Both the position numbers and the translations under genes were made by a program. This document shows, in pieces, positions 5,461 through 64,000 of a stretch of 64,000 bases of DNA (positions within the stretch are counted from its first letter, which is position 1; each line of letters opens with the position of its first letter). The stretch comes from Bdellovibrio sp. (lineage in GTDB: Bacteria > Bdellovibrionota > Bdellovibrionia > Bdellovibrionales > Bdellovibrionaceae): contig JBKCUU010000047.1 in the NCBI GenBank assembly GCA_046318155.1, positions 10,433-74,432 on the forward strand, given 5' to 3'. The notes beneath the pieces are model-generated. The model was not told the DNA's origin. It did not search any database and saw only the letters and a program-made list of their open reading frames with translations.

Positions 5461-6231
5461 CTAAGGGAGCGTCAAGATCTCGTGACCCGTATCGGTGATC
5501 AAGACCGTGTGCTCGAACTGCGCTGAAAGTTTTCCGTCTGATGTTTTATAATACTTGATGCTTGAATTGGGTATCTCAAATTCAAAAAAGGCCGCAACAC
5601 CTTGATTCACCATCGGCTCGACCGTAATACAATGCCAAGGCACAAGGATCTCCCCACGGCCCCTTTTACCGAACGAAGGGACGTAAGGGTCCTCGTGAAA
5701 GGCCCGGCCGATTCCGTGCCCGCCAATCTCCTTGACGGTCGTATAACCGCGCCTGGAGACAAGTTTGTCGGTCACAAAGCCAATATCGCCGGTGGAGGCC
5801 CCCGGTTTGATCTCTTCGATCCCTTTGTCGCGGGCCAGGCGGGCCACTTCGACCAAATCCCTGGCGTCAGGACTCACATTTCCCACAAAAAAGGTCGCTG
5901 AGCAGTCACCAAAGAATCCATCCAACAAGCTCGTCACATCGACATTGATAATGTCCCCCTCTTTGAGAACGGTCTGATCAGGCAGGCCATGGCAGACAAT
6001 TTCGTTGATCGAAGTGCAGCAGGACTTAGGATAGCCGTGGTACCCGAGAGTCGCGGGCGTTGCCCCATGCGTAAGATTGTAATCATAGACAATTTTGTCG
6101 AGCTCATCGGTCGTGATTCCGGCCCGAACAAAACGACCCACGTGCTCAAGACTTCGCGCCGCCAATCGGCAGACCGCTTTCATCTTTTTAATCTCTTCAG
6201 GTGAAAGGGGGACGATTTTTTTTTGAGCCAT
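5461..6231 (-). CDS. map: type I methionine aminopeptidase
   Basis: 256 aa with motifs CHGLPD, GDIINVDVT, GHGIGRAFHE and EPMVN..., EHTVLIT typical of MetAP type I. Confidence 0.95.
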   Translation of the reverse strand: MAQKKIVPLSPEEIKKMKAVCRLAARSLEHVGRFVRAGITTDELDKIVYDYNLTHGATPATLGYHGYPKSCCTSINEIVCHGLPDQTVLKEGDIINVDVTSLLDGFFGDCSATFFVGNVSPDARDLVEVARLARDKGIEEIKPGASTGDIGFVTDKLVSRRGYTTVKEIGGHGIGRAFHEDPYVPSFGKRGRGEILVPWHCITVEPMVNQGVAAFFEFEIPNSSIKYYKTSDGKLSAQFEHTVLITDTGHEILTLP

Positions 6232-6255
6232 CTCGACTTGTCCTTCTGGGTCTTA

Positions 6256-6290
6256 GAAAAGAAAAAACCCACTCGGTTTACGAGTGGGTT
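6256..6290 (-). terminator. intrinsic terminator of the SWIB gene
   Basis: On the minus strand: AACCCACTCG-TAAAC-CGAGTGGGTT followed by TTTTTTCTTTTC, about 29 nt after the stop at 6319. Confidence 0.8.
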
Positions 6291-6318
6291 CTCTCGAAGT
6301 TTTATCTTAAAATCAAGA

Positions 6319-6672
6319 TTACTTCAGGTGCTTGCTAACAAGTTTTGTCATTTCGAACATCGAAACTTGTGCTTTTCCGAAGATAGGCTTCAATTTGTCA
6401 TCAGCATTGATGTTGCGACGATTTTTTGTATCTTGAAGATTGTGTTTTTTGATGTAGTTCCACAATTTTTTAACAACTTCAGTGCGGGGAACGGGTGTTG
6501 CACCGATCACTGCTGCCAACGCTGTCGAAGGAGTCAAGGCCTTCATAAACGCTGCATTTGGCTTGCGCTTAGTCGCGGCTTTTTTAGAAGCAGCTTTCTT
6601 AGGAGCCGCTTTTTTTGTAGCTGCTTTTTTGGAAGCCGCTTTCTTCGTCGCTTTTTTTGCTTTTTTCGCCAT
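6319..6672 (-). CDS. SWIB/MDM2-domain protein with histone-H1-like Lys/Ala-rich N-terminal tail
   Basis: 117 aa. The N-terminus is MAKKAKKATKKAASKKAATKKAAPKKAASKKAATKRK. It is followed by a SWIB-like core: FMKALTPSTALAAVIGATPVPRTEVVKKLWNYIKKHNLQD...INADDKLKPIFG...VSMFEMTKLVSKHL. Confidence 0.85.
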   Translation of the reverse strand: MAKKAKKATKKAASKKAATKKAAPKKAASKKAATKRKPNAAFMKALTPSTALAAVIGATPVPRTEVVKKLWNYIKKHNLQDTKNRRNINADDKLKPIFGKAQVSMFEMTKLVSKHLK

Positions 6673-6790
6673 GTTTCCTCCAGTGCGAATTAGGGGGCCT
6701 TAAGGCCTGTTTTATTTGTTCGAATGGATCAAGTGTAACGACTTCTCGCCCTTTGTCCAAAAAAAAATGCAGGCCCTTCCACTTTTTTAT

Positions 6791-7057
6791 CGAGGGAAAA
6801 CCGGCTTTTTTCTGCATTTTTGCCTCGGAAACTGGTCTCTTGCCGAGGGAAAACTCAAGAAAACGCATCAAATTAGGACTCTTTTACGAGGGAAATCAGC
6901 CGATCCACAGAGCATGGGAAGCTTCGTTGAGTTCGCCGATATCCTCGAAAAAAAGATCCGCCGCGAGGTCGAGCGCGAGCTAAGAACTGAGCCTTTCTCG
7001 AGGGAAAAGAGCCCATTCTCCTCTGAAAAAGTCTCTTTAAGCTCTGAATTTCCCTCG
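6791..7057. repeat. cluster of CGAGGGAAA(A) motifs
   Basis: Direct copies at 6791-6800, 6844-6853, 6887-6896 (CGAGGGAAAT) and 6999-7008. An inverted copy lies at 7049-7057 and an inverted near-copy (CGAGGCAAAA) at 6818-6827. The first three direct copies and the near-copy lie in the SWIB / J-domain divergent intergenic region. Confidence 0.6.
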
Positions 7058-31037: not shown

Positions 31038-32141
31038 ATGCAAAAACGCATCGGCATCCTTGGTGGCGGTCAACTGGCCCGCATGCTCGCTCTCGCAGGA
31101 GCTCCCCTTGGATTTGAAATGCATATCTTGAGTCCCTCCAAACTCGACCCGGCGGCACAGGTCACCGGCTTTCACCATCTTGGTGATCCCAGCAAACTCG
31201 AAGATCTTAAAAAGTTTTTGACCCAAATCGATCACCTCACTTTTGAGAGTGAGTTCTTCGATATGGATGTGCTGCAAAAGGCACTGGGTTCTTTAGCTCA
31301 AGCCCCTGGTGTTTTTCCAAATGCGGGCGTCATGCGTGACTTGCAAGATCGCAGCAGTCAAAAGCAACTCTTGATCACGCATGGTTTGGCGACATCGCCG
31401 TGTATGTTTGTTCAGAGACCCCTTGATCTGAAAACTGCGTTTGAAAAATTCAAAAAAGGTTATGTCGTTAAAAAAGTGCGTGGGGGCTACGACGGCACCG
31501 GCACGTTTTACGTCAAGAGTCTTCAAGAGCTCGAAAAGCTTCAGGTCGCCTTTCCGGGGATTTCAATTGCCGAGAGTTTTGTCAAATTTAAACGCGAACT
31601 TGCTACTTCGGTCGTTTGCGATGGCAAGAAAGTGCACTTTCTTCCACTTGTCGAATCTCATCAAACGGATTCACGTTGCGACTGGGTTCGCGGGCCCGTT
31701 AAACACCGCGCCTGGAACAAGCTCTCGTTGAAAATCGAAAAGATGCTGCTCAAAATTGGCTATCAAGGCGTGATCGCCTTTGAGCTTTTTGATACTGGCA
31801 CGAATCTCCTGGTCAATGAAATCGCCCCGCGGGTGCACAACTCAGCTCACTACACACAAGACGCGCTTAATTTTTCGCAATTTGCTTTGCACCTCCTAGC
31901 TGGCACAGGCGCCAAGCTTCCACGCCTGGAACTCAAAACAAAATGTTTTGTCATGATGAATCTGGTTGGCGAGAGCTACTCGTCTTTTGTTTTTCCGGAT
32001 GTTTTAGAAGGAAACCTTCACTGGTACGGCAAAGCCTCGAACCGCCCAGGTCGCAAAATGGGACACCTCAACTGGGTCGGCGCGCGACTCGTGCCGCTTT
32101 TTAAAAACGCTCTCAATGAGCGCGCAAGGATCCGCAAATGA
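31038..32141 (+). CDS. purK: N5-carboxyaminoimidazole ribonucleotide synthase
   Basis: IGILGGGQLARMLA and an ATP-grasp core (VVKKVRGGYDGTGTF, VNEIAPRVHNSAHYT). Overlaps purE by ATGA. Confidence 0.93.
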   Translation: MQKRIGILGGGQLARMLALAGAPLGFEMHILSPSKLDPAAQVTGFHHLGDPSKLEDLKKFLTQIDHLTFESEFFDMDVLQKALGSLAQAPGVFPNAGVMRDLQDRSSQKQLLITHGLATSPCMFVQRPLDLKTAFEKFKKGYVVKKVRGGYDGTGTFYVKSLQELEKLQVAFPGISIAESFVKFKRELATSVVCDGKKVHFLPLVESHQTDSRCDWVRGPVKHRAWNKLSLKIEKMLLKIGYQGVIAFELFDTGTNLLVNEIAPRVHNSAHYTQDALNFSQFALHLLAGTGAKLPRLELKTKCFVMMNLVGESYSSFVFPDVLEGNLHWYGKASNRPGRKMGHLNWVGARLVPLFKNALNERARIRK

Positions 32142-32647
32142 AAAAGCCAAAAGCTCCGCCGAAGAAAAAAGTCGCCATCATTATGGGAAGCAAAACCGAT
32201 TTGAAGGTCATGCAGGCCGCGGCCGATGTGTTAAAAGAATTTGGCATTCCCTACCACCTCGAGGTGGTATCGGCCCACCGAACTCCCGAAAAAATGTTTG
32301 AGTTTGCCCGCCTTGCGCACGAACGTTTTAGCTTGATTATTGCGGGGGCTGGCGGCGCAGCCCATCTGCCTGGAATGGTGGCATGCTTGACGACCTTGCC
32401 GGTTATTGGCGTTCCTGTCCAATTGGGGTCGCTCAAAGGGATGGATGCCTTGTTGTCAGTTGTGCAAATGCCAAAAGGGATTCCGGTTGCAACAGTTGCC
32501 ATCGACAACGCCGCCAACGCGGGACTTTTAGCCGCCCGTTTTGTGGGAATGAATGACGAAAAGATCCAAAAGAAGCTGCAAAAGTACCAGTCATCGCAAA
32601 AAAAGAAAGTTGCGCAAATGAACCGCGAGATTAGGCTCGCGCGGTAA
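32138..32647 (+). CDS. purE: N5-carboxyaminoimidazole ribonucleotide mutase
   Basis: VAIIMGSKTDLKVM, VVSAHRTPEKM, IAGAGGAAHLPGMVA and VIGVPV are PurE signatures. Confidence 0.95.
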   Translation: MKKPKAPPKKKVAIIMGSKTDLKVMQAAADVLKEFGIPYHLEVVSAHRTPEKMFEFARLAHERFSLIIAGAGGAAHLPGMVACLTTLPVIGVPVQLGSLKGMDALLSVVQMPKGIPVATVAIDNAANAGLLAARFVGMNDEKIQKKLQKYQSSQKKKVAQMNREIRLAR

Positions 32648-53682: not shown

Positions 53683-55260
53683 ATGAACCGGACGTTTTTG
53701 TTTTTCAAGAAATATCGCTGGGCGCTCCTCTCCGGAGTTCTCATGGGTACGAGCTACATTCCACTCCCACCATGGGCTTTGTTGTTTTGCTGGGTGCCAC
53801 TTTGGTATGACCTTGTGACCAACACCCGTTCACTGAAAGAAGCTTTCATCAAGGGTTGGTGGACGCAGTTTTTGCTGACGCTCATCGGGTTTCACTGGAT
53901 CGCTTACGTCGCGCACGTTTTTGGATTTTTTCCGTGGCCGCTCGCCATCGGAATTTTAATTTTGTTCGCGGCCCTCGCCCACTTGTACATCGCCGTCGCC
54001 GCCGTTCTTGCCGTATGGCTTCGCCATCGCTTTGGTCTAGGAGCCCTGTCGACGGTGCTTCTACTGGCCTGCTTTCAAAACTTAGGCGAGGCTTTTTGGC
54101 CCTCCATCTTTTCTTGGAATTTAGGATACCCACTCCTGTGGATCCATTCGGGCTGGGCCCAATGGGCCGACGCGATTGGATTTTTGGGCCTCTCCTTCGT
54201 TGTGCACCTCATCAATTCGCAGCTCACCTGGGTTTGGATTCGTCGAAAAACCAAGCCCGCTTGGATCTCGCTTGGGGTCACCGCCCTTTTGCTGGTGATC
54301 ACGGGCTTTACTGGCGTCTGGCGCAGCGAAAAATGGCAAGGCACCGAAAGCTTTAAAGCCACTCTGGTCCAGGCCAACATCGGAAATCTCGAAAAGATTT
54401 ATGCCGAGCGCGGGGTGGGTTACCAACGCGAAATTTTAGAACGGTATTTTGGTTTATCAAAACGTGCCGTCGCTCAGAACCCCGAGACCACCTTGCTGGT
54501 TTGGCCCGAGTCCGCGGTCCCTGAGTTTTTGAATCCCCATAACAGCGAGCGCCGCTATGCCCGCCTGTTTTTTGATTCACAACGCGAATTGGGCCGTAGT
54601 CTTTTTACCGGCGCCTACTCGAACGACCCCCCCGAGACCCGCCCCCGTGAGGATTACAATGGCCTGTTCTTGTTTGATGAAGTCGGAACTCCGCTAGCGC
54701 CGGGCTACCACAAAACCAATCTGCTGATTTTTGGCGAGTACGCACCGCTCGGCCACGTGTTTCCGATTTTACGAAAATGGAACCCGGGAGGAGAAGGTTT
54801 TGGTCAGGGCACCGGCCCCACGATTTTTCCGTGGCGGGGACTTAAGATTGGACCGCAAATTTGTTATGACAGCCTCTACCCACATTTTTCTCGAAATTTG
54901 GCTTTGCTTGGTGCCGATTTTTTAATCAACCTGACCAACGACTCTTGGTTTGGACCTAGCTTTGAACCTGAACAGCATCTTTACATGACGCTGGCCCGCG
55001 CCATCGAAGTTCGCCGGCCACTTTTGCGCAGCACCAATACCGGAATTTCAACCGTGATCGAGGCAACTGGGCAGATTCATGTTCAATCACCCAAGTTCGA
55101 AGAGTGGTTTCATACTTACGACGTGAAATACCTGAAAAGTGCCGACCTGACATTCTACACCCGCTTCGGAGCTTTTCTTTCCTTGCTCCCCTTGCTCGTG
55201 GTAGGACTGGTGTTAGGAATCGGAGCCCGTGGAACATCTCGACTGGAACGAAGTACTTAA
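53683..55260 (+). CDS. lnt: apolipoprotein N-acyltransferase
   Basis: 525 aa. N-terminal multi-TM region plus a C-terminal nitrilase-like CN-hydrolase domain (LVWPESAVP, FGEYAPL, ICYDSLYP, NDSWFG). Confidence 0.92.
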   Translation: MNRTFLFFKKYRWALLSGVLMGTSYIPLPPWALLFCWVPLWYDLVTNTRSLKEAFIKGWWTQFLLTLIGFHWIAYVAHVFGFFPWPLAIGILILFAALAHLYIAVAAVLAVWLRHRFGLGALSTVLLLACFQNLGEAFWPSIFSWNLGYPLLWIHSGWAQWADAIGFLGLSFVVHLINSQLTWVWIRRKTKPAWISLGVTALLLVITGFTGVWRSEKWQGTESFKATLVQANIGNLEKIYAERGVGYQREILERYFGLSKRAVAQNPETTLLVWPESAVPEFLNPHNSERRYARLFFDSQRELGRSLFTGAYSNDPPETRPREDYNGLFLFDEVGTPLAPGYHKTNLLIFGEYAPLGHVFPILRKWNPGGEGFGQGTGPTIFPWRGLKIGPQICYDSLYPHFSRNLALLGADFLINLTNDSWFGPSFEPEQHLYMTLARAIEVRRPLLRSTNTGISTVIEATGQIHVQSPKFEEWFHTYDVKYLKSADLTFYTRFGAFLSLLPLLVVGLVLGIGARGTSRLERST

Positions 55261-57556
55261 AAAAATCCAAAGCTTCGCGACCAGCGGAACTGCTCGTCTT
55301 ACTTTGCAAGAGCTGCCGCCCAAAAGCAATGCCGACGAAGCGCGGCTTCACCTCAACGATGTTTTTGATGCGATGACCTTGCTTTCGCATGGCCCGCGCC
55401 CCTTCATGGAAAGCCTGGATTTGTTTGAACCCTGGCACTCGCGCATCAAACGCAATGCGGTTCTCAAAGCGCTCGAGATCAAAGATGTGCGCAGTTTTTG
55501 CCTTGAAGTCATTGCGCTCGATGAGGTCTTAAAACTTTCAAACACCGCCTGGGCCCGCCGCACTCAAAGCCAGTTGATGGCCGCCGAAGAGCCCTTGTCA
55601 GCCATTGATCAGATCCTCACACCTCGCGGAGAGATCCGCAGCGATGCCAGCGAAAAACTGTACAACCTGTTTCGCGAAAAAGAAAATCTCGCCCGGCAAG
55701 TGGAGCACACACTTGACCGGTTAGTGAAAGACAACGACATGCAAACGTATTTGCAAGACAAGTACGTCACCACCCGCGATGGCCGCTGGGTTTTGCCAAT
55801 TCGAAGTGGCTCACGTCATTCGGTTGAGGGTGTCATTCACGGTTCGAGCCACACCAAGCAAACCGTCTTTATGGAGCCGGCCGGCGTCATTCCGCTCAAC
55901 AATCGTCTTCGCCAAGTTGAAGTCGAAATTGAAGACGAGATCGAACGTCTCTTAACCCAACTATCCGAATACCTGGCCACAAAAACTCTGGGCTTTACCG
56001 AATCGCGTTCACTTTTAAGCGAAGCGGATTCACTCTTGGCGCAGGCCCAGTTTTCGGTTTTGATCGAAGGCAAGGGCTTTGAGTTTAGCGATGAAGAGAT
56101 TCTTCTCAATGAGGTGAAGCATCCGCTCTTAGTCATCGCTCAAAAAAATCCGGTGGCCAACACGGTGCAAATGCCGCAGCAAAAATCGATCTTGCTGCTT
56201 TCGGGACCAAACGCCGGCGGCAAAACAGTGCTGATGAAATCAATTGGCCTTGCCGCGCAGATGGCGCGCGCGGGTCTTCCAATTTGCGCGGGCGAAGGAT
56301 CACGGCTTCCGTTCTTTGAAAAGATTTTGGTGGGAATTGGCGATTCGCAAAACATCGGCGCCGAGCTTTCGACCTTTGCCGCTCACCTTAAAGTTTTACA
56401 TTCGGCTTCTGAGCTGAAAGGTTTTCAAAATCTGATTTTGGTCGACGAGATTTGCGGCGCCACCGATCCCGAAGAAGGCAGTGCCCTGGCCCGGGCTTTC
56501 ATCGAAAAATTCTCAAAAAACAAAACTTTTGCCGTCGTGACGTCACACTTAGGGCCGCTCAAATCTGGTTGGACCGAGGATGACCGCGTTTTGAATGGCA
56601 GCCTCGAGTATGACAGCAAGTCGGGCCGGCCCACCTATCAATTTATTCAAGGGATCCCCGGCGACTCTCTTGCGATCCAAACGGCCAAGCGCGTCGGCGT
56701 GCCGCAAGATTTGATCGAACGGGCGATGACACTTTTGTCACCCGTGACGCGCTCTCGGCTCGCGGGGCTTGAGCAAATTGAACAAATTAAGAGTGATCTG
56801 CATTTGCTGCAAGACTCGTTGAAACGCGAGAAATCAAAGACCTTTGCCGAAAAAGAGAAATACCAAAAACTTTTAGCCGAGCACGAAAAAGACAAAGAAA
56901 ATCTGCTGGCCAAGGCTGTGCGCGAAGCGCAGAAAAAAGTCGATGAACTGATCAGCCAGGCCCGCGCGGATGAGACCTTCAAAAAGCACCGCAGCTTGCA
57001 AGAGATCAAGCACCAGCTCCCCGAGATCGTCAAATCTCGGGCGGGCGTGACCCAACAAGTGACCGCCGTCACCACCTCTGAAGAGTTTGGCAAACGCTTC
57101 CCGCCCGGCACCAAAGTTTATATTCCCAGCCTTGGGCAAGACGGCGTGATTCAAAGTACACCCAACGGCAAAGGCGAGATCTTGGTCATGTCCAATTCGA
57201 TCCGCCTTTCGCTCCCGTGGAGCGAACTCAAACCGCCGATGGTGGCAAGCAATCCCACCGCCGAAATTTTGCGCCGCTCAGGCCCCGTCACGGTCGCCCT
57301 TCATGATTCGGACCGAGTCATCGACTTGCGCGGCATGACCGTTGAAGAATCGATTGAGCAACTTGAAATGAGTCTTGATCAAGCGTCAGCATCTCAAGAA
57401 GACCGAATAAAAATTGTCCATGGTCACGGAACCGAGGCTCTCAAAAAAGCGGTTCGCACTTACTTGTCTCGTAGCGTTTACGTTAAAAAATGGAAAGCGG
57501 GCTCGCCCGAGCAAGGCGGCGACGGCGTCACTTGGGCTGAACTTGGCGACGCTTGA
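55229..57556 (+). CDS. mutS2: endonuclease MutS2 (with C-terminal Smr domain)
   Basis: LLLSGPNAGGKTVLMKS, LVDEICGATDPEEGSAL, and the C-terminal Smr IDLRGMTVEESIEQLEMSLDQA...IKIVHGHGTEALKKAVRTYL. GTG start overlapping lnt by 32 nt. Confidence 0.93.
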   Translation: MEHLDWNEVLKKIQSFATSGTARLTLQELPPKSNADEARLHLNDVFDAMTLLSHGPRPFMESLDLFEPWHSRIKRNAVLKALEIKDVRSFCLEVIALDEVLKLSNTAWARRTQSQLMAAEEPLSAIDQILTPRGEIRSDASEKLYNLFREKENLARQVEHTLDRLVKDNDMQTYLQDKYVTTRDGRWVLPIRSGSRHSVEGVIHGSSHTKQTVFMEPAGVIPLNNRLRQVEVEIEDEIERLLTQLSEYLATKTLGFTESRSLLSEADSLLAQAQFSVLIEGKGFEFSDEEILLNEVKHPLLVIAQKNPVANTVQMPQQKSILLLSGPNAGGKTVLMKSIGLAAQMARAGLPICAGEGSRLPFFEKILVGIGDSQNIGAELSTFAAHLKVLHSASELKGFQNLILVDEICGATDPEEGSALARAFIEKFSKNKTFAVVTSHLGPLKSGWTEDDRVLNGSLEYDSKSGRPTYQFIQGIPGDSLAIQTAKRVGVPQDLIERAMTLLSPVTRSRLAGLEQIEQIKSDLHLLQDSLKREKSKTFAEKEKYQKLLAEHEKDKENLLAKAVREAQKKVDELISQARADETFKKHRSLQEIKHQLPEIVKSRAGVTQQVTAVTTSEEFGKRFPPGTKVYIPSLGQDGVIQSTPNGKGEILVMSNSIRLSLPWSELKPPMVASNPTAEILRRSGPVTVALHDSDRVIDLRGMTVEESIEQLEMSLDQASASQEDRIKIVHGHGTEALKKAVRTYLSRSVYVKKWKAGSPEQGGDGVTWAELGDA

Positions 57557-57772: not shown

Positions 57773-58504
57773 ATGAAACGCAAGTCGATCAAAATTGCTT
57801 TTTTCGCGAGCCTGTCTGTGTTGCTTCTCTCGGGGTGCGGAGCTCAGAAATTTCAAACCAACTCGAGCGGCCCCACCTCGGGAAGCCTGACGCTGGGATC
57901 GACCAGCGCGGCGGCGGCAAAGTGCAGTCATGATATCGATAACTTAACGAACCTCAGTACTCGACTTAAAGTTTATGAAGATGGCACCTCTGGAATTCGA
58001 AACGATTTGATTCGCGTTAAATTCAATCGCTTTCCGACTGAATTTACCAATGCAGCGGATGCCATCAAACTTTGGACTCGCACCGTTGATGGCAATGGAA
58101 CATGGGGCACTTGGCACGCGGTTTCGTTTTATGTCGAGCGTTACACAACAAGTGGCATTGTGCGCTCACCTTACAAATACATGGATTTAACTTGGGCACA
58201 AATGCAACAGCTTGGAACTTATTTTGGAGTTCCTGCCAAAACGGCAACTGAGTTTTTAAATTCTGTGGTTTTGCTCGCTGAACTGGGTGACTTAAACGTC
58301 GCCAAAGTTTTGACGACCAAAGTTTATATGAGTGCAACGTCGCCCGAAGTCACCACTTTGATTCCCCAGTTTAAGGCCAATCCTCGAGAGTACGCCAAGG
58401 ACCACCCAAAGGCCTTGCTTGATCTGCACCCCTTAGCTTACCTCTGGAACAACAACTACAGCGAAGATCAGTACGCCTTTGAGGCCAATCAGTTTTGTTT
58501 TTAA
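57773..58504 (+). CDS. hypothetical lipoprotein
   Basis: Lipobox MKRKSIKIAFFASLSVLLLSGC. No recognised domain. Confidence 0.65.
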   Translation: MKRKSIKIAFFASLSVLLLSGCGAQKFQTNSSGPTSGSLTLGSTSAAAAKCSHDIDNLTNLSTRLKVYEDGTSGIRNDLIRVKFNRFPTEFTNAADAIKLWTRTVDGNGTWGTWHAVSFYVERYTTSGIVRSPYKYMDLTWAQMQQLGTYFGVPAKTATEFLNSVVLLAELGDLNVAKVLTTKVYMSATSPEVTTLIPQFKANPREYAKDHPKALLDLHPLAYLWNNNYSEDQYAFEANQFCF

Positions 58505-58879: not shown

Positions 58880-60037
58880 ATGCGCCTCATCGTCGTCATT
58901 TTTAGCTTTTGGTTGTTCCTACCGCAGGCTTTCGCCCAAACGGCCGCCTGTTCATCCCTGTATTCGACAACTCCAGCAAAGGCCTGGCTCGAGGAGCGAA
59001 TTGTCCAAGTGATCACGAGCCAACTTTTGAACCCAAAAACTCCGAGCCTATCGAAGGCCGGCAGCCGCCCGGCAGAAGTCAATGTCACCGAGGCGACACG
59101 CAATGCACTTTTGGCTGAAGCGATCTACGGGACGGGCTTGGTTGAAGCCTCCACCTACTCACGCTTGATGAGCGACAAGCTGTTTCAGGTGAAATATCTG
59201 TCTCAAGTAACCCCCGACGTTGCCGCTTATTTTCCTCGAACATTTGGCTTCCGTGAGTTTCTTGGACGCCACGGTCTTTTGACTTCACGAGGGCAGCTCT
59301 CTGGAAATGAAACTCAAATTTTTCAAGCATTTCAACGAGAGTTTCCTGAAGGTTTTGTCGTCAAGCCGGTCGCTGGGTACAACACAGCCGGCAAGGGTTT
59401 TTACATCAATGAAGCTCGAGTCCTGGTCCAAGATCTTCTAAAAGATCCCAATAAGTTTTTAGGATCTGACAGCAGTTTTTTATTTTCTAGTCCCGAGCTT
59501 GGACTTGCCTCTGGTGAGGGTTGGCTTGTGCAGCAATTGCTCCAAGCTAAAGTCAAGGGTCTCCCCATTTCCGGAAAACCACCTGAATACCGGGTTCACA
59601 CGTATCAAAAGCACGTGGTTCCCCAGGCAACCGAATCCCGATGGCTGGTTGCTGGCGAAAAAAATTTTCCAGAAGTAAACGCTTACGTGCAAAAGTTTTT
59701 GGACCGTATTCCAGACGCGCACTTGGCAAAACAAGCTTGGGGTCTGGATGTGGTGCAGCTCGGTCCTGGTGAATTTCGCATTATCGAAATCAACACCAAT
59801 CGCGGCCAACCCATTCAATGGAGTGGTTACTTGCTCTCGGGCTTGCAATTGGGTGCTCATGTTCGCCACTGGGAAGCGGTTGGAGTTTTAAAATTGAACG
59901 GTCCTACGGCTGAACCCTTTCGTCGAAACCGCGCCAATCTCGAAAGCTGGATCCGCAAAGAAGGCCGAGACGCCGTGATTCAAGATCTTCGTATCAATGA
60001 TCCCGAACTTGCCCGTGAGGTTGAAAATGAAATCTAG
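58880..60037 (+). CDS. signal-peptide-bearing ATP-grasp-like protein
   Basis: AGGAGA RBS before the ATG at 58880. Signal peptide MRLIVVIFSFWLFLPQAFA. ATP-grasp-like blocks GFVVKPVAGYNTAGKGFYI, WLVQQLLQ, EYRVHTYQKHVV and WGLDVVQLGPGEFRIIEINTNRG. Confidence 0.6.
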   Translation: MRLIVVIFSFWLFLPQAFAQTAACSSLYSTTPAKAWLEERIVQVITSQLLNPKTPSLSKAGSRPAEVNVTEATRNALLAEAIYGTGLVEASTYSRLMSDKLFQVKYLSQVTPDVAAYFPRTFGFREFLGRHGLLTSRGQLSGNETQIFQAFQREFPEGFVVKPVAGYNTAGKGFYINEARVLVQDLLKDPNKFLGSDSSFLFSSPELGLASGEGWLVQQLLQAKVKGLPISGKPPEYRVHTYQKHVVPQATESRWLVAGEKNFPEVNAYVQKFLDRIPDAHLAKQAWGLDVVQLGPGEFRIIEINTNRGQPIQWSGYLLSGLQLGAHVRHWEAVGVLKLNGPTAEPFRRNRANLESWIRKEGRDAVIQDLRINDPELAREVENEI

Positions 60038-62267
60038 CCCACTCTTTTTTCTTTTCTCCGTCATTGGATTTTTGGTTGCTCCCTCTCTCACGGTGGCCGC
60101 CCCCTTTTGCGGACAAGTTTTCCGCTCCATCGAGACTCAAGGCCCCGCCAAGACGGCCCCAGATTTTACATCTGTCCTTCGGTTTGACGAAAACGGTTTT
60201 GTCTTTGCCCGCGGCGCTAAAGGCAAAGATCAAGAGGTGCAGTTTGGCTTTGAATCCGAGTACACCGCTCACGAACTAGGGCCGATGACAAAATTTTATG
60301 GACCAGACCCTGTTTCCTCCGGCATCTCCGCACAGGCTTGGAAGGCGACCCCGATCGAGGGCCGCCTCGCTTGGGTCCTCGCCAAGTTGAAGACCATTCC
60401 CTATGGGGCAAAAGAAACAGTTCTTGTTCGCCTTGATAAAGACCCATCCTTGGCTTTTTTGCCGGAAACGCTGATTAAGGACGATACCGGCAACGTTGAA
60501 GTTATTCTGTCGCCAGTCTCGAGCTTTGAGGTTTGGAAAAACCAAATGCAATGGATCAATCGCAATTTGGGTGTGGGCTCCATGCAAGCGATGATCAGTC
60601 AGCCTCGCGGCACTTTTTTTCCCCAGGCCGATGGGCCCATGGCGACAGTCATTTATAAAGAGAATAAGGGTTTCTTTAACTTTGTCCATGAAAGCGATGC
60701 CCTTGATCGCATGGCCCGCGGAGCCGAAAAATACCAAGCAGATCCCTCTAAAGAGGTGATGCGGCCGTTTCTGCATCCTTACTTGGGACCGATGATTGAG
60801 TTTCGCCACAAACGAATGCGTAAAGCCATGTTCGAACACGCGCAAGGCAAAGACCTCGAACAGGCCACTCTCGAAGCCATCGTTCGGCGCGAACAGTCCT
60901 TTAAGTACATTGGCTCGACCGCTTATCGCCCTGACATTGGCGCTCCCACGCGCATCTCGCAAGAAGTCCGCGATGCCCACAAAGATGAGGATGTTCTGAT
61001 CGAGCGTGTGAAAAGATCAATGGTTTACATGCAAGAAGGCCGGTCCCACTTTTTACGTGCGGCGGACATTAAGCCGTTCGACAGTGAAGTTCAGTTCAAC
61101 AATCTGACGCCTCAGGTGCAAAACTTCTTGAAAACAGTTTTCCCGCACAAGGCTCCTGCACGCGTTCAAGAGTTCGAAAATGCTTTGTTTGTTCACGAGA
61201 CGTACCGCAATTTTGCGTACCCCTTACATCAGTTTCGGCCTTGGTTGGCCTTTATGAACCGCATGGACCTCGTGAAAACGGTTGAACAGGCGCAAAATCG
61301 TTACCGCGAAAAGCTCGAGAGCCTGGCGGAACAACTCGAAGCGGGCTCTGTCACCAAAGAAGACGCCAGTCGCCTCGCTCAAGGTGCCTTGGCTCAATTC
61401 GCAGTCGAAAGTAAACTGAGCGACGCCTTCAAAAATTATGAGGCTGAATTCCTTCGCAAAGCTTCAAGAGAGCGCTCGACGACCCAAACTTTGGATCAGC
61501 CGGCGCGCGCCCTCGAAGCACGTCTGATCTTGCTGACCGATCGTTGGCAAGAAAACGTGCAAATGGTTTCAAACGTTCGGTTCAGACACAAAGACGAAAA
61601 TCAAAAAAATGCAGCGGACCGCCGAATTTTGGTGGTTTCGACACATGGACTTTCAGGGGGTCAAAAAGAAAATCTCAAGACCGATTACCTCAATCTTTTG
61701 ATTGGCGGAACGGTTTCATTCCCTCTGAAAGAGCGAGCAACACATCTCTTAGTCCGAGTGAACGAAATGATCTACGACTTGGGCTTTTGGCCCACTCCTC
61801 ACTTTCCACGGTTTCGAGTGAAGGACTACCAACTTCCGCGTGGTCCTCGTCTTGAATCTGTTGTCCTGCTCTCGCGCGTCGAAGAATCGCGTCTGAAGCA
61901 GTATATTGAAAATGTTCAGGAAAGCCGTTCAAAAGTTTTGGGAGCATTTGCCTACCGAGGCGCCCCCGAAACGCGCGGGACACTGACTGACAATCGCAGC
62001 CTTGGCTGCGGTCACAACTGCACGACCTGGATCGCAACTTCTCCCATCGGCGCAAAAAATGAGTCGCTCTTGAACTTGCTGAACGCCGAAGGCGCGGTTC
62101 CTTGGATTGCGCAAAATCCAGGCTGGCTGACGTCCTGGCTGACAGCAAGTGCTCCCAGCGAGCGCGTGCCTTTTTTGGTTTATTGGACTGACAAGCCCCT
62201 TGCCGAAACGTTGAAATCCAAAGTCAAAGAGAACGAACTTTTAGAATGGGATTTTAACAAAAAATAA
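60027..62267 (+). CDS. large secreted hypothetical protein (GS-like amidoligase-type motifs N-terminally, NC..W cysteine motif C-terminally)
   Basis: 746 aa. The ATG at 60027 overlaps the upstream stop by 11 nt. Signal peptide MKSSPLFFLFSVIGFLVAPSLTVAAP. Motifs FGFESEY, GNVEVILSP, GSMQAMIS, SQEVRDAH and later LGCGHNCTTWIA. Confidence 0.6.
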   Translation: MKSSPLFFLFSVIGFLVAPSLTVAAPFCGQVFRSIETQGPAKTAPDFTSVLRFDENGFVFARGAKGKDQEVQFGFESEYTAHELGPMTKFYGPDPVSSGISAQAWKATPIEGRLAWVLAKLKTIPYGAKETVLVRLDKDPSLAFLPETLIKDDTGNVEVILSPVSSFEVWKNQMQWINRNLGVGSMQAMISQPRGTFFPQADGPMATVIYKENKGFFNFVHESDALDRMARGAEKYQADPSKEVMRPFLHPYLGPMIEFRHKRMRKAMFEHAQGKDLEQATLEAIVRREQSFKYIGSTAYRPDIGAPTRISQEVRDAHKDEDVLIERVKRSMVYMQEGRSHFLRAADIKPFDSEVQFNNLTPQVQNFLKTVFPHKAPARVQEFENALFVHETYRNFAYPLHQFRPWLAFMNRMDLVKTVEQAQNRYREKLESLAEQLEAGSVTKEDASRLAQGALAQFAVESKLSDAFKNYEAEFLRKASRERSTTQTLDQPARALEARLILLTDRWQENVQMVSNVRFRHKDENQKNAADRRILVVSTHGLSGGQKENLKTDYLNLLIGGTVSFPLKERATHLLVRVNEMIYDLGFWPTPHFPRFRVKDYQLPRGPRLESVVLLSRVEESRLKQYIENVQESRSKVLGAFAYRGAPETRGTLTDNRSLGCGHNCTTWIATSPIGAKNESLLNLLNAEGAVPWIAQNPGWLTSWLTASAPSERVPFLVYWTDKPLAETLKSKVKENELLEWDFNKK

Positions 62268-64000
62268 ATGAAATTACTCGCCTGCTTTTTTCTTATTTTA
62301 GGGACCCCCTTCGCCGCCGCAGACATGCCGGCGAAACCTGCCGTCGTTCGCGGAGTTCTGACCGACACGCAGCGGATTTACTTTGATCTTGGTGATGGCG
62401 CACGTCTGACCTTTGACCCTTCTTTGCACTTTCAGGCCGCCAGTGATGAGCTCACCACGCAAGCTCTCGGGTTAGAAAGTCGCAGCCGCCTTGTGATCAA
62501 TGAGAATTTCGTTCTCAACAAATCGGATTTTCAGAAAATGATGCACGTCTGGCCCGAAATGCCGCTCAAAGCGTCCTGGACCTCGCGGCTTCAGATTTTA
62601 AAGGCCGCTGGCGATTCTGTGACCGTACTCGTGCGCAAAGGCCTCATGCGAACGCAATCTTCAATCGAAGTCCCTCGATCAATCGCCGTGTGGCTGGGCT
62701 GCGCTCGCGATACAACTCAATGCTTGGGGATGACCGATACTATTTCAAACCCCAATCTCCTCAATGCCGTTCCGACGGCACTTGAGCTTAATCTGCTCAA
62801 CGCTGATGAGATCAAAGACCTGCAAGCACGAACAGCCGGTCTCAATCTCGAATCGCTGAAATCCGTTTTTCTCAAAAACGGATTTCCCAACGCTATGGCC
62901 GAATGGATGGGGCTCAAGCTGTTGGCTCGGCGCCATGCCCTCGTGCTTGATTCCGAACGTGACCGCGTTCTGAATCAACTCCAGGCGTACTCGTCTTTGC
63001 CACTCATTAAAAACGGGCAATTGATGTCCGCGCCCGAAGGGTTTGAGACGGATTTGACCTTGCACCATCTCGAAGCACGTCTGAACGCCTTCCTCTTGAG
63101 CCGTCTCGATGATGTTCAAAAACTAGCTGAGTTCGTGCTGAGAAATTTTCCGTACATGACCCTAGAGACTGAAAAATCCATCGGCGGTTGGTCGGTATCA
63201 CCAGGGTTCATGATTCGGGTCAACCGCCGCATCGAAAAAAATGTCCACGCTCGAAGCGTGCTGGAGCAATTTCGCATCGAAGACTCACTCGAAGTCTTTG
63301 CATCGGTAACGGTCGGACCCCATTTTGAGCGCGGGATTCTGAGTGCCTCGGCCGGCGTGGGCCCGGCCTACTTGCGCCGATACACGCGCGTTCACATGGC
63401 AGCCAGCGAAGAAGACGCGCGCAAGGGTTACTGGAAGATCCCAAAAGATCTGATCTTGCGTAAAAAGTATGTCGATCTTGAACCGCGCGAGCGCCTCACC
63501 ATTCAAAGTGGTTGGTTGGCCAATGCGAGCTTGAATGGCAATATTCGGATTCTGGGGCAGTCCAAGGTCCGTCCTCAAGCTTGGGTGATGGGAAATCACC
63601 AGTGGCTTTCGCTCAGTCACGTGTACCGAGCCCACGACGGCGATCTTTACTTTGGACACGGCAACTCAAAAGGTTTTGAAGTCAGTTCGCAGGCGTTCTG
63701 GCGGGTGATTAGCAAAATCGCGCGCATTCCGGTTCTCAACTTTCGCAAAGCGTGGATGTCCGCGACGAATGCTGTTTACAAAGTCGATGCGGCGACCTTA
63801 AGTCGCCAAGATGAAAAGGCCATCTTGCTCAAAGAAGCCATCGAGTCGGGAGATCTGTCAGCTCTGAACCCCCAGCCGCCTCGTGTGCAGGCCCAGGCGA
63901 CCTACCAGGCGAGCGAGCTGTGGCTGGATTGGGGCTTAGGCAATTACGATCGCACTCAGTGGTCTGGAGTGCTGCAAGCGACGCCGCCAAGCACAGGCAC
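62268..64000 (+). CDS. large secreted hypothetical protein, 3' end outside the window
   Basis: Absent from the ORF track (no stop in the window). The ATG at 62268 directly abuts the upstream TAA. I translated it by hand and it stays open to 64000 (>577 aa). Signal peptide MKLLACFFLILGTPFAAA. Confidence 0.6.
   Translation, partial: MKLLACFFLILGTPFAAADMPAKPAVVRGVLTDTQRIYFDLGDGARLTFDPSLHFQAASDELTTQALGLESRSRLVINENFVLNKSDFQKMMHVWPEMPLKASWTSRLQILKAAGDSVTVLVRKGLMRTQSSIEVPRSIAVWLGCARDTTQCLGMTDTISNPNLLNAVPTALELNLLNADEIKDLQARTAGLNLESLKSVFLKNGFPNAMAEWMGLKLLARRHALVLDSERDRVLNQLQAYSSLPLIKNGQLMSAPEGFETDLTLHHLEARLNAFLLSRLDDVQKLAEFVLRNFPYMTLETEKSIGGWSVSPGFMIRVNRRIEKNVHARSVLEQFRIEDSLEVFASVTVGPHFERGILSASAGVGPAYLRRYTRVHMAASEEDARKGYWKIPKDLILRKKYVDLEPRERLTIQSGWLANASLNGNIRILGQSKVRPQAWVMGNHQWLSLSHVYRAHDGDLYFGHGNSKGFEVSSQAFWRVISKIARIPVLNFRKAWMSATNAVYKVDAATLSRQDEKAILLKEAIESGDLSALNPQPPRVQAQATYQASELWLDWGLGNYDRTQWSGVLQATPPSTG

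Follow-up and report, generated by a model that had tools for sequence, protein, structure and literature searches.

A putatively exported ATP-grasp enzyme and its two-domain partner in a conserved operon of Bdellovibrio

The bacterial periplasm contains no ATP, and ATP-dependent ligases are textbook cytoplasmic enzymes; glutathionylspermidine synthetase/amidase (GspS), in which a ligase and a Cys amidase are united in one bifunctional protein, is itself cytoplasmic. Gene neighbourhoods that combine an ATP-grasp enzyme, a glutamine synthetase (GS)-like COOH-NH2 ligase or Amidoligase_2 protein and a thiol peptidase were described by Iyer, Abhiman, Burroughs & Aravind (2009, as relayed in PMC4431377). 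ATP-grasp proteins of the R2K clade have been predicted to be effectors delivered by type VI or type IV secretion systems (T6SS/T4SS) (PMC4431377), and Legionella has the Dot/Icm ATP-grasp effectors Lpg1684 and Lpg1925 (PMC11696984); as precedents for the delivery of ATP-grasp proteins into target cells, both are predictions only. In the rlo and rim operons of Pseudomonas a secreted retropepsin-like peptidase is encoded together with a cytoplasmic ATP-grasp enzyme, RloC or RimK (PMC11957051). Here we describe an operon of Bdellovibrio sp., carried on a stretch of 64,000 nucleotides (the window: assembly GCA_046318155.1, contig JBKCUU010000047.1, positions 10,433 to 74,432 of the forward strand), that encodes an ATP-grasp protein (P1), a two-domain protein (P2) and two further proteins (P3 and P4). 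As in the rlo and rim operons, an ATP-grasp enzyme is mixed with putatively exported, envelope-acting partners; whereas RloC and RimK are cytoplasmic, here the ATP-grasp protein itself bears a predicted signal peptide. Searches of the accessible literature on Bdellovibrio with ATP-grasp or amidoligase, and on secreted, periplasmic, extracellular or exported ATP-grasp enzymes, returned no description of this module.

The reading that we favour, as a serious but tentative one, is that the operon encodes an exported ligase/amidase module of Bdellovibrio sp. which works where ATP of the prey is available. Analysis of the open reading frames (ORFs) of the window places P1, P2 and P3 consecutively on the plus strand and in translational coupling: P1 and P2 overlap by 11 nt (atgaaatctag), and the ATG of P3 abuts the stop of P2 in a TAAATG junction, as an initial annotation of the window had claimed. 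Ribosome-binding sites stand 6 nt 5′ of the ATG of both P1 (AGGAG) and P2 (GAGG). That annotation recognised three genes, correctly, and missed a fourth: on the parent contig, just beyond position 64,000, lies P4 (177 amino acids, aa), whose gene shares 16 nt with that of P3. Since P4 is coupled to P3 and the gene that follows it is on the opposite strand, the operon comprises four genes, one of them outside the window. P1, P2 and P3 are 100% identical to the NCBI entries ACK5P7_05460, _05465 and _05470 of a metagenome-assembled genome (MAG); all database names are 'hypothetical protein'. Coordinates of all features are collected in Table 1.

Judged from its structural model and from conserved residues, P1 is an ATP-grasp protein with ATP/Mg2+ residues intact. 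A Foldseek search of the PDB with its AlphaFold (AF2) model (pLDDT 84.7, pTM 0.84) returned ATP-grasp proteins as all of the top 50 matches (best E 2e-6, prob 1.0, TM 0.3-0.45), including D-Ala-D-Ala ligases (Ddl), PsnB, RimK, LysX/ArgX, tubulin tyrosine ligase (TTL) and biotin carboxylase. At the level of sequence P1 reaches no curated Pfam or NCBIfam model threshold, its ATP-grasp matches all falling below gathering scores, and PDB sequence searches with the P1 profile and with a widened P1 set gave noise only. Below threshold, the Pfam matches of 14 members of the P1 family are mostly to ATP-grasp families (ten matches), the four commonest being R2K_3 (5/14, best 5e-4), ATPgrasp_ST (3, 0.079), YheCD (1, 0.0024) and R2K_2 (1, 0.0066).

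For comparison within the window we used PurK, the product of an ordinary gene (31038-32141; Pfam ATP-grasp E 1.4e-36, RS_preATP-grasp-like, PurK_C) whose 169-aa follower we take to be purE (gene pair 31038-32647). The P1-family profile aligns to PurK in hhalign with E 0.003, K162 and the Gly-rich loop falling on the PurK K-loop, and a greedy hhalign run, which is an alignment and not a superposed structure, is collinear through D290 and E303 with acidic residues of PurK. K162, P163 and G171 are invariant in 14/14 aligned P1 sequences (G173 only among the 11 closer homologues), while E236/R238, D290 and N305-T-N-R-G are invariant, and E303 nearly so, both in members with a signal peptide and in paralogues without one; the catalytic apparatus would thus have been maintained in the putatively exported P1 proteins. 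Both the ATP-grasp blocks that the initial annotation had picked out and the fold that it had proposed are borne out by these comparisons.

P1 resembles the known ATP-grasp ligases (Ddl, RimK, LysX/ArgX, PsnB) in its predicted three-domain fold, its Lys strand and Gly-rich loop and its Asp...Glu-x-Asn metal motif, and differs from them in lying below curated thresholds and in carrying a predicted Sec signal peptide followed by a Cys-containing N-terminal tag. With the R2K and Legionella effectors it shares a proposed site of action outside the producing cell, at the expense of ATP of the target cell, and the best sub-threshold Pfam match of its family is R2K_3. The last-strand motif of P1 (I-I-E-I-N-T-N-R-G) is however the standard E-x-N and not the E-x-G-D of R2K.3 (PMC4431377), the signal is of the Sec type, and no T6SS/T4SS, PAAR/VgrG or immunity genes lie nearby. 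Homologues of P1 were recovered only from Bdellovibrio-like organisms, related cytoplasmic ATP-grasp paralogues being present in other Bdellovibrionota.

The second element of the argument is export. Signal peptides were judged by a heuristic for n-, h- and c-regions, which flagged 12 of the 55 long ORFs of the window, together with conservation in orthologues. The N-termini of P1, P2 and P3 each combine a basic residue with a hydrophobic stretch 10-13 residues long and a site of the A-x-A type, and the same type of N-terminus occurs in 10/10 full-length P1 homologues (51-78% identity), in most full-length P2 homologues, in 3/3 other P3 homologues and in all P4 orthologues. The signal segment of P1 is wholly missing in the cytoplasmic paralogues (L015, L017 and P0011). 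The signal peptides that the initial annotation had assigned to all three proteins are therefore positive by the heuristic and kept in orthologues.

It might be supposed that these segments are annotation artefacts, produced by wrong start codons in front of ordinary cytoplasmic enzymes. The NCBI version of P3 (ACK5P7_05470, 806 aa) indeed starts at the internal M20 and so loses the hydrophobic N-terminus with its predicted signal peptide (window 62268-62326). We nevertheless consider this very hard to credit: P1 offers no other Met ahead of its conserved core, the second being residue 96; the ribosome-binding sites of P1 and P2 are correctly spaced; the P3 ATG abuts the P2 stop; JGI calls P3 at 825 aa, and that call and all homologues support the ATG at 62268; and orthologues at 45-78% identity retain both the reading frame and the features of a signal peptide. 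On these grounds the predicted signal-peptide N-termini of P1-P3 are not start-call artefacts, a possibility against which the initial annotation had itself warned.

A different objection is that the segments are uncleaved anchors that hold cytoplasmic ligases at the cytoplasmic face of the inner membrane, where they would make an envelope precursor with cytoplasmic ATP. In favour of such an arrangement are a paralogous cytoplasmic cassette linked to glycosyltransferases and an exporter (see below), and a copy of the operon (L020) between murC and ftsQ, within a cell-wall gene cluster. The hydrophobic runs, at only about 10-13 residues, are however too short for a transmembrane helix; a basic residue before them and an A-x-A site after them make the N-in/C-out pattern of a signal peptide; P3 has invariant Cys pairs, which fit an oxidising compartment; and the feature is common to P1-P4, with a lipoprotein gene upstream besides in the window and its closest relatives. 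Membrane anchoring is accordingly improbable in our view.

P2, the partner of P1, belongs to a family of 353 cluster representatives (E<=1e-3 in an exhaustive profile search of 1.84 billion proteins), among them N-domain-only (about 400-530 aa) and C-domain-only (about 250-440 aa) proteins. Whole P2 has no Pfam, NCBIfam or PDB sequence match, and Foldseek with its AF2 model (pLDDT 91.6, pTM 0.88) found no significant match in the PDB or BFVD. In an alignment of 62 N-domain proteins E158, Q187, K293, R301, D303, E313 and R315 are invariant and E76, E78, H250 and H318 nearly so; the conserved residues sit on successive beta-strands of the P2 model, and the motifs run in the order G-x-E-x-E, E..[ST]P, S-x-Q, R, E-x-R. 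This is the motif order of glutamine-synthetase-like carboxylate-amine ligases, and we consider it probable, if well short of certain, that the N-domain is GS-like.

None of the 62 N-domain proteins matches Amidoligase_2 (PF12224), GCS2 or Gln-synt_C at E<=1, no PHROG family recurs among them, and the N-domain has no PDB sequence match. In Foldseek searches with whole P2 the BFVD match of highest probability (prob 0.60, E 0.059) comes from a phage and is named 'Amidoligase enzyme', while the PDB matches include glutamine synthetase 3fky (E 0.84) and glycocyamine kinase, a guanidino kinase (E 1.8), none of them significant. In hhalign neither whole P2 nor its N-domain aligned significantly with the Amidoligase_2 protein of a related operon (L005); at E 0.8, four motifs of that protein (GIEVEM, TEIVTDP, SIQ and ENR) are collinear with the conserved N-domain residues E76/E78, E158, Q187, R301 and E313/R315. 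A tblastn search with that protein, run for a comparison profile, gave 0 and 1 matches in phages and plasmids. The initial annotation had called P2 an 'amidoligase-like/Cys-motif' protein: the motif, G-H-N-C-T-[ST]-W, proves to be invariant, whereas the amidoligase label is only suggestive, there being no family match.

This Cys motif lies in the C-domain, where an alignment of 45 proteins shows H663-N664-C665 (GHNCT[ST]W) to be invariant and H573 nearly so; in the P2 model a helix starts two residues past C665. In one relative (P0068) a CN_hydrolase (thiol amidase) domain occupies the position of the C-domain, fused to the N-domain. The most economical reading is that the C-domain is a Cys-dependent amidase or transamidase. 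In two further relatives, P0065 (1139 aa) and P0115 (850 aa), a HAD phosphatase domain stands at the N-terminus, ahead of the P2 N-domain in the same polypeptide. A full P2-like unit also stands at the C-terminus of an otherwise unannotated protein of 1875 aa (P0064).

Two described arrangements are brought to mind. Like GspS, P2 would combine a putative ATP-dependent amide ligase and an amidase-type domain with a Cys nucleophile in one polypeptide, but it has no sequence or significant structural similarity to GspS, and domain order and folds differ or are unassigned. The neighbourhoods of Iyer et al. (2009), so far as PMC4431377 relays them, offer a closer parallel: here too an ATP-grasp gene has as its coupled neighbour one whose product shows GS-like motifs in sequence in its N-domain (GxExE, E..[ST]P, SxQ, ExR) and an invariant Cys in its C-domain, and in two related operons (L005 and L022) a true Amidoligase_2 gene sits inside the cassette. 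In contrast to those neighbourhoods as relayed there, the domains of P2 match no Amidoligase_2, GCS2 or peptidase model, P3 and P4 have no counterpart, every component of the cassette is predicted to be exported, both P2 domains as well as P3 and P4 belong to unannotated families, and the module is restricted to Bdellovibrionota.

P3 was described in the initial annotation as a protein without recognisable domain that runs off the window edge, and so it is. Its window part has no match above threshold in Pfam or NCBIfam, neither full-length P3 nor P4 (from L002 and L005) has one in Pfam, and a PDB sequence search with the P3 profile gave noise only. No relatives of P3 or P4 were detected outside operons of the P2 type. 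We also considered an outer-membrane beta-barrel for P3 and found no support for it, there being no family or PDB match and the C-terminus (...KWFGH) not ending in an aromatic residue.

A pattern scan of 185,579 species-representative genomes yielded 13 P2 loci, all in Bdellovibrionota: Bdellovibrionaceae, Bacteriovoracaceae, Pseudobdellovibrionaceae and MAGs labelled Bdellovibrionia, Bacteriovoracia, Bdellovibrionales or Oligoflexia. The P2 family was thus found only in this phylum. The trio P1-P2-P3, whose conservation elsewhere the initial annotation had left to be checked, is syntenic in at least seven other Bdellovibrio-type loci, and the loci fall into three types (Table 1). In type A, that of the genus Bdellovibrio, every enzyme seen whole carries a signal peptide by the heuristic, and the upstream partner of P2 is throughout an ATP-using fold with a predicted signal peptide (in L021 the contig holds only the C-terminal end of the P1-type gene). 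The identity of that partner varies. It is P1 in the window and the other A1 loci; in two Bdellovibrio lineages a 448-aa ATP-grasp paralogue and an Amidoligase_2 protein precede P2; and in L019 the ATP-grasp gene is replaced by one translationally coupled to the P2 orthologue, whose product matches Pfam PI3_PI4_kinase above threshold (E 9e-12), contains the motifs DRHKKN and IDHG and has a predicted signal peptide (...STTWA/AD). The L020 copy, which occurs on a metagenomic Bdellovibrio-like contig, occupies roughly the spot in the division/cell-wall cluster where ddl or murB is usual; it is a single occurrence.

Type B loci, in Bacteriovoracaceae and other Bdellovibrionota, place P2 or its split domains beside genes for Peptidase_S58 (DmpA-like), CN_hydrolase and/or Amidohydro_3, with predicted signal peptides on many of the products. 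One of them (L016) has a single N-domain gene in series with five C-domain paralogues and an S58 gene. The amide chemistry of these neighbours (9/13 loci), together with the fusion of N-domain and CN_hydrolase, supports the ligase/amidase module. The same facts invite the main rival, in which the operon encodes an ATP-free catabolic amidase module of the predator periplasm or the bdelloplast that degrades prey peptides or amides, for example D-amino-acid-containing peptidoglycan peptides; the P2 C-domain would then be a hydrolase, and P1 and the N-domain substrate-binding or ATP-independent transferase modules. The hydrolase neighbours, several with signal peptides, the P0068 fusion and the established lack of ATP in the periplasm all speak for it. 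Yet the ATP/Mg2+ residues of P1 are as invariant in the putatively exported members as in the cytoplasmic paralogues, P2 is partnered in Bdellovibrio by three ATP-using folds (ATP-grasp, Amidoligase_2 and PI3/4-kinase-like), and the Bdellovibrio-type loci are without S58 and CN_hydrolase neighbours. We regard the catabolic module as possible but on the whole unlikely.

Type C loci encode split N- and C-domain proteins without signal peptides, accompanied by a His_Phos_1 phosphatase, a P1-like ATP-grasp protein, a DUF2334 protein and four glycosyltransferases; a divergent ATP-binding cassette/membrane fusion protein/outer-membrane factor (ABC/MFP/OMF) exporter adjoins. This mix of glycosyltransferase, phosphatase, deacetylase-like protein and ligase resembles a sugar-amino-acid conjugate pathway. 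Because a cytoplasmic, biosynthetic version of the cassette exists, the partnership of ATP-grasp enzyme and P2 would be older than the export signal, and the exported cassette appears to be a derivative or sister of a cytoplasmic cassette for glycoconjugate biosynthesis.

A feature common to these disparate partners is a short motif, C-x-x-[VIL]-[FY], which stands 3-8 residues past the signal-peptidase site of P1, the 448-aa paralogue, P2 and the split N- and C-domain proteins predicted to be exported. Among P2-family representatives with a signal peptide a Cys occurs at this place in 82/104 and the strict motif in 38/104, against a background of 0.2% in interior windows and 2/58 in cytoplasmic members. 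In the Amidoligase_2 proteins (...ARACSAVFAGH and ...ARACTRVFGN, each ending at the stop) and in the kinase-like protein (...SCHGIFF...) the motif is found at the C-terminus. A lipobox was ruled out: behind the signal peptides of P1 and P2 the residues at -1 to -3 misfit one, and the Cys lies well beyond the end of the h-region. The motif may serve as a tag by which partner enzymes dock or form disulfides once exported. Extending our reading to the group as a whole, one might propose that Bdellovibrionota export Cys-tagged forms of normally cytoplasmic ATP-using enzymes (ATP-grasp, Amidoligase_2 and PI3/PI4-kinase-like) that pair with an equally tagged P2 – possibly through disulfides, possibly on P3/P4 – and use prey ATP, in the bdelloplast or the cytoplasm of the prey, for ligating or remodelling molecules of the prey. 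Bacterial predation would then include ATP-dependent enzymology outside the cytoplasm, which would be new; this fuller proposal we hold to be rather doubtful.

Upstream of the operon lie a non-coding spacer and a lipoprotein gene, both as the initial annotation had them. The lipoprotein has no match above threshold in Pfam or NCBIfam, and its gene is kept only in close relatives (L001-L004 and L006), being missing in L005 and L007. Scans of the spacer against Rfam and against sigma-70 promoter and terminator consensus sequences gave no match; in L002 and L006 it measures about 115-140 bp, neither its sequence nor its length being kept relative to the window, and no small ORF within it is conserved in relatives. 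For these reasons a riboswitch or a precursor-peptide gene in the spacer was rejected. They bear also on the suggestion that the locus is a cytoplasmic cluster for a ribosomally synthesised and post-translationally modified peptide (RiPP) of graspetide-like kind, for peptide modification or for a secondary metabolite, with P1 macrocyclising or ligating a small precursor peptide. PsnB, the ATP-grasp enzyme of a graspetide, is among the best structural matches of P1, and pathways of this kind are known to have gene neighbourhoods of ligase plus peptidase (Iyer et al. 2009, insofar as relayed in PMC4431377). Against this, neither a small ORF nor a precursor gene is conserved, the spacer is unconserved, all of the enzymes have predicted signal peptides, and the Bdellovibrio-type loci contain neither an exporter nor a leader-peptidase gene; we judge such a cluster decidedly improbable.

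Farther upstream, at 53683-57556, are lnt (LNT_N and CN_hydrolase) and mutS2 (MutS_V, Smr), ordinary housekeeping genes that overlap by 32 nt. The pair is syntenic in relatives, and in L002 a gene for an acyl-CoA dehydrogenase lies between mutS2 and the lipoprotein gene.

Table 1. Features of the operon and its surroundings in the window, and types of related loci (L-numbers; positions on their own contigs). A slash marks the predicted cleavage site; all signal peptides are predicted.
Feature	Position	Strand	Description
Lipoprotein gene	57773..58504	+	243 aa, lipobox LLLSG/C; neighbour, not core to the module
Spacer upstream of P1	58505..58879	.	375 bp; presumably promoter region
P1	58880..60037	+	ATG 58880, stop 60037, 385 aa; ATP-grasp enzyme, export predicted
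P1 signal peptide	58880..58936	+	residues 1-19, MRLIVVIFSFWLFLPQAFA/Q, continuing QTAAC; conserved Cys24 after it (58949-58951)
P1 Cys motif	58949-58963	+	C24-S-S-L-Y
P1 ATP-binding strand and Gly-rich loop	59363..59398	+	K162-P163...G171-x-G173; aligns to PurK VVKK..GGYDGTG loop
P1 catalytic motifs	59585..59794	+	E236-Y-R238, D290, E303-I-N305
P2	60027..62267	+	ATG 60027, stop 62267, 746 aa; two-domain protein, export predicted
P2 signal peptide	60027..60098	+	about residues 1-24, MKSSPLFFLFSVIGFLVAPSLTVA/APFC; then Cys28 in C-x-x-V-F tag
P2 Cys motif	60108-60122	+	C28-G-Q-V-F
P2 N-domain	60159..61481	+	about residues 45-485; possible GS/amidoligase-like ligase domain
P2 C-domain	61494..62264	+	about residues 490-746; H663-N664-C665 in GHNCTTW (62010-62030)
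P3	62268..64000 (runs past window)	+	577 codons in window, 825 aa on parent contig
P3 signal peptide	within 62268..64000	+	residues 1-18, MKLLACFFLILGTPFAAA/D
P3 invariant Cys pair	62700-62723	+	C145/C152
Type A1	window, L002, L006, L007		P1-P2-P3-P4; ATP-grasp upstream of P2
Type A1, partial	L021		P2-P3-P4; of the P1-type gene only the C-terminal end, at contig edge
Type A1 without P4	L020 (1-12516)		P1-P2-P3 between murC and ftsQ
Type A2	L005, L022		448-aa ATP-grasp paralogue, Pfam Amidoligase_2 protein (E 1e-17), P2-P3-P4
Amidoligase_2 genes of type A2	L005 6906-7991; L022 2000-3079		both products with signal peptides
Type A3	L019		PI3_PI4_kinase-like protein (5949-7004), then P2 alone
Type B	L008-L014, L016, L018		9/13 loci; P2 or split N-/C-domain genes
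Type C	L015 7821-16842; L017 7902-16995; P0047 context		no signal peptides; split N- and C-domain genes

How might an exported ligase/amidase module work? P1 would activate a carboxylate as the acyl-phosphate and join it to an amine, as a carboxylate-amine ligase; the N-domain of P2 could supply a second, GS/amidoligase-like step of ATP-dependent ligation or phosphotransfer; and its C-domain, a Cys/His amidase or transamidase, might work on that same amide-linked substrate, trimming or transferring it, as happens in pairs of ligase and amidase. P3 and P4 would be exported accessory or scaffold proteins. In this way the cassette would remodel amide- or peptide-linked molecules of the prey or the envelope, the peptides of peptidoglycan being one candidate. 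Because the periplasm is without ATP, the most likely site of action is a compartment holding ATP of the prey: the periplasm of the bdelloplast once the prey membrane has been permeabilised, or the prey cytoplasm. An ATP transport system has been reported in B. bacteriovorus 109J (Ruby & McCabe 1986, as cited in PMC4834554), from which we infer that the predator may have access to ATP inside its prey.

Several points weigh against this proposal. A Sec signal reaches the periplasm only, so that delivery into the prey is purely our inference, and the maps of Bdellovibrio-type loci (L001-L007 and L019-L022) contain no secretion-system (T6SS/T4SS/T5SS) or immunity gene and no trafficking or prey-targeting domain. 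Export of the cassette is itself predicted from heuristics and conservation. The assignment of the N-domain as a ligase is suggestive, the comparisons behind it lacking statistical support (Foldseek E >= 0.059; hhalign E 0.8), and the C-domain has no Pfam, PDB-sequence, peptidase-model or fold match. Relatives of P2 are often found beside hydrolases and not ligases, which an ATP-independent catabolic role fits equally well. Finally, none of the loci recovered by the pattern scan comes from a species representative of B. bacteriovorus; if that representative is the model strain HD100, no expression or secretome data apply.

What the exported module would mean for predation follows from the place at which it could work. 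A conserved ATP-grasp enzyme that combines intact catalytic residues with a predicted signal peptide points to a compartment where exported enzymes find ATP, and the case is the stronger because Amidoligase_2 or PI3/PI4-kinase-like proteins bearing signal peptides fill the same position in the operon. For an intraperiplasmic predator the invaded prey is the obvious candidate. Should the operon instead belong to an ATP-independent amidase pathway, it would still amount to a catabolic module specific to this lineage of predators and assembled from families not yet characterised. If the exported ligase/amidase module is real, ligation and modification chemistry would join the known hydrolytic repertoire of prey-directed enzymes, and functions would be gained for unannotated families – both domains of P2, with its 353 cluster representatives, as well as P3 and P4. 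It would also provide a testable handle on the availability of energy in the bdelloplast.

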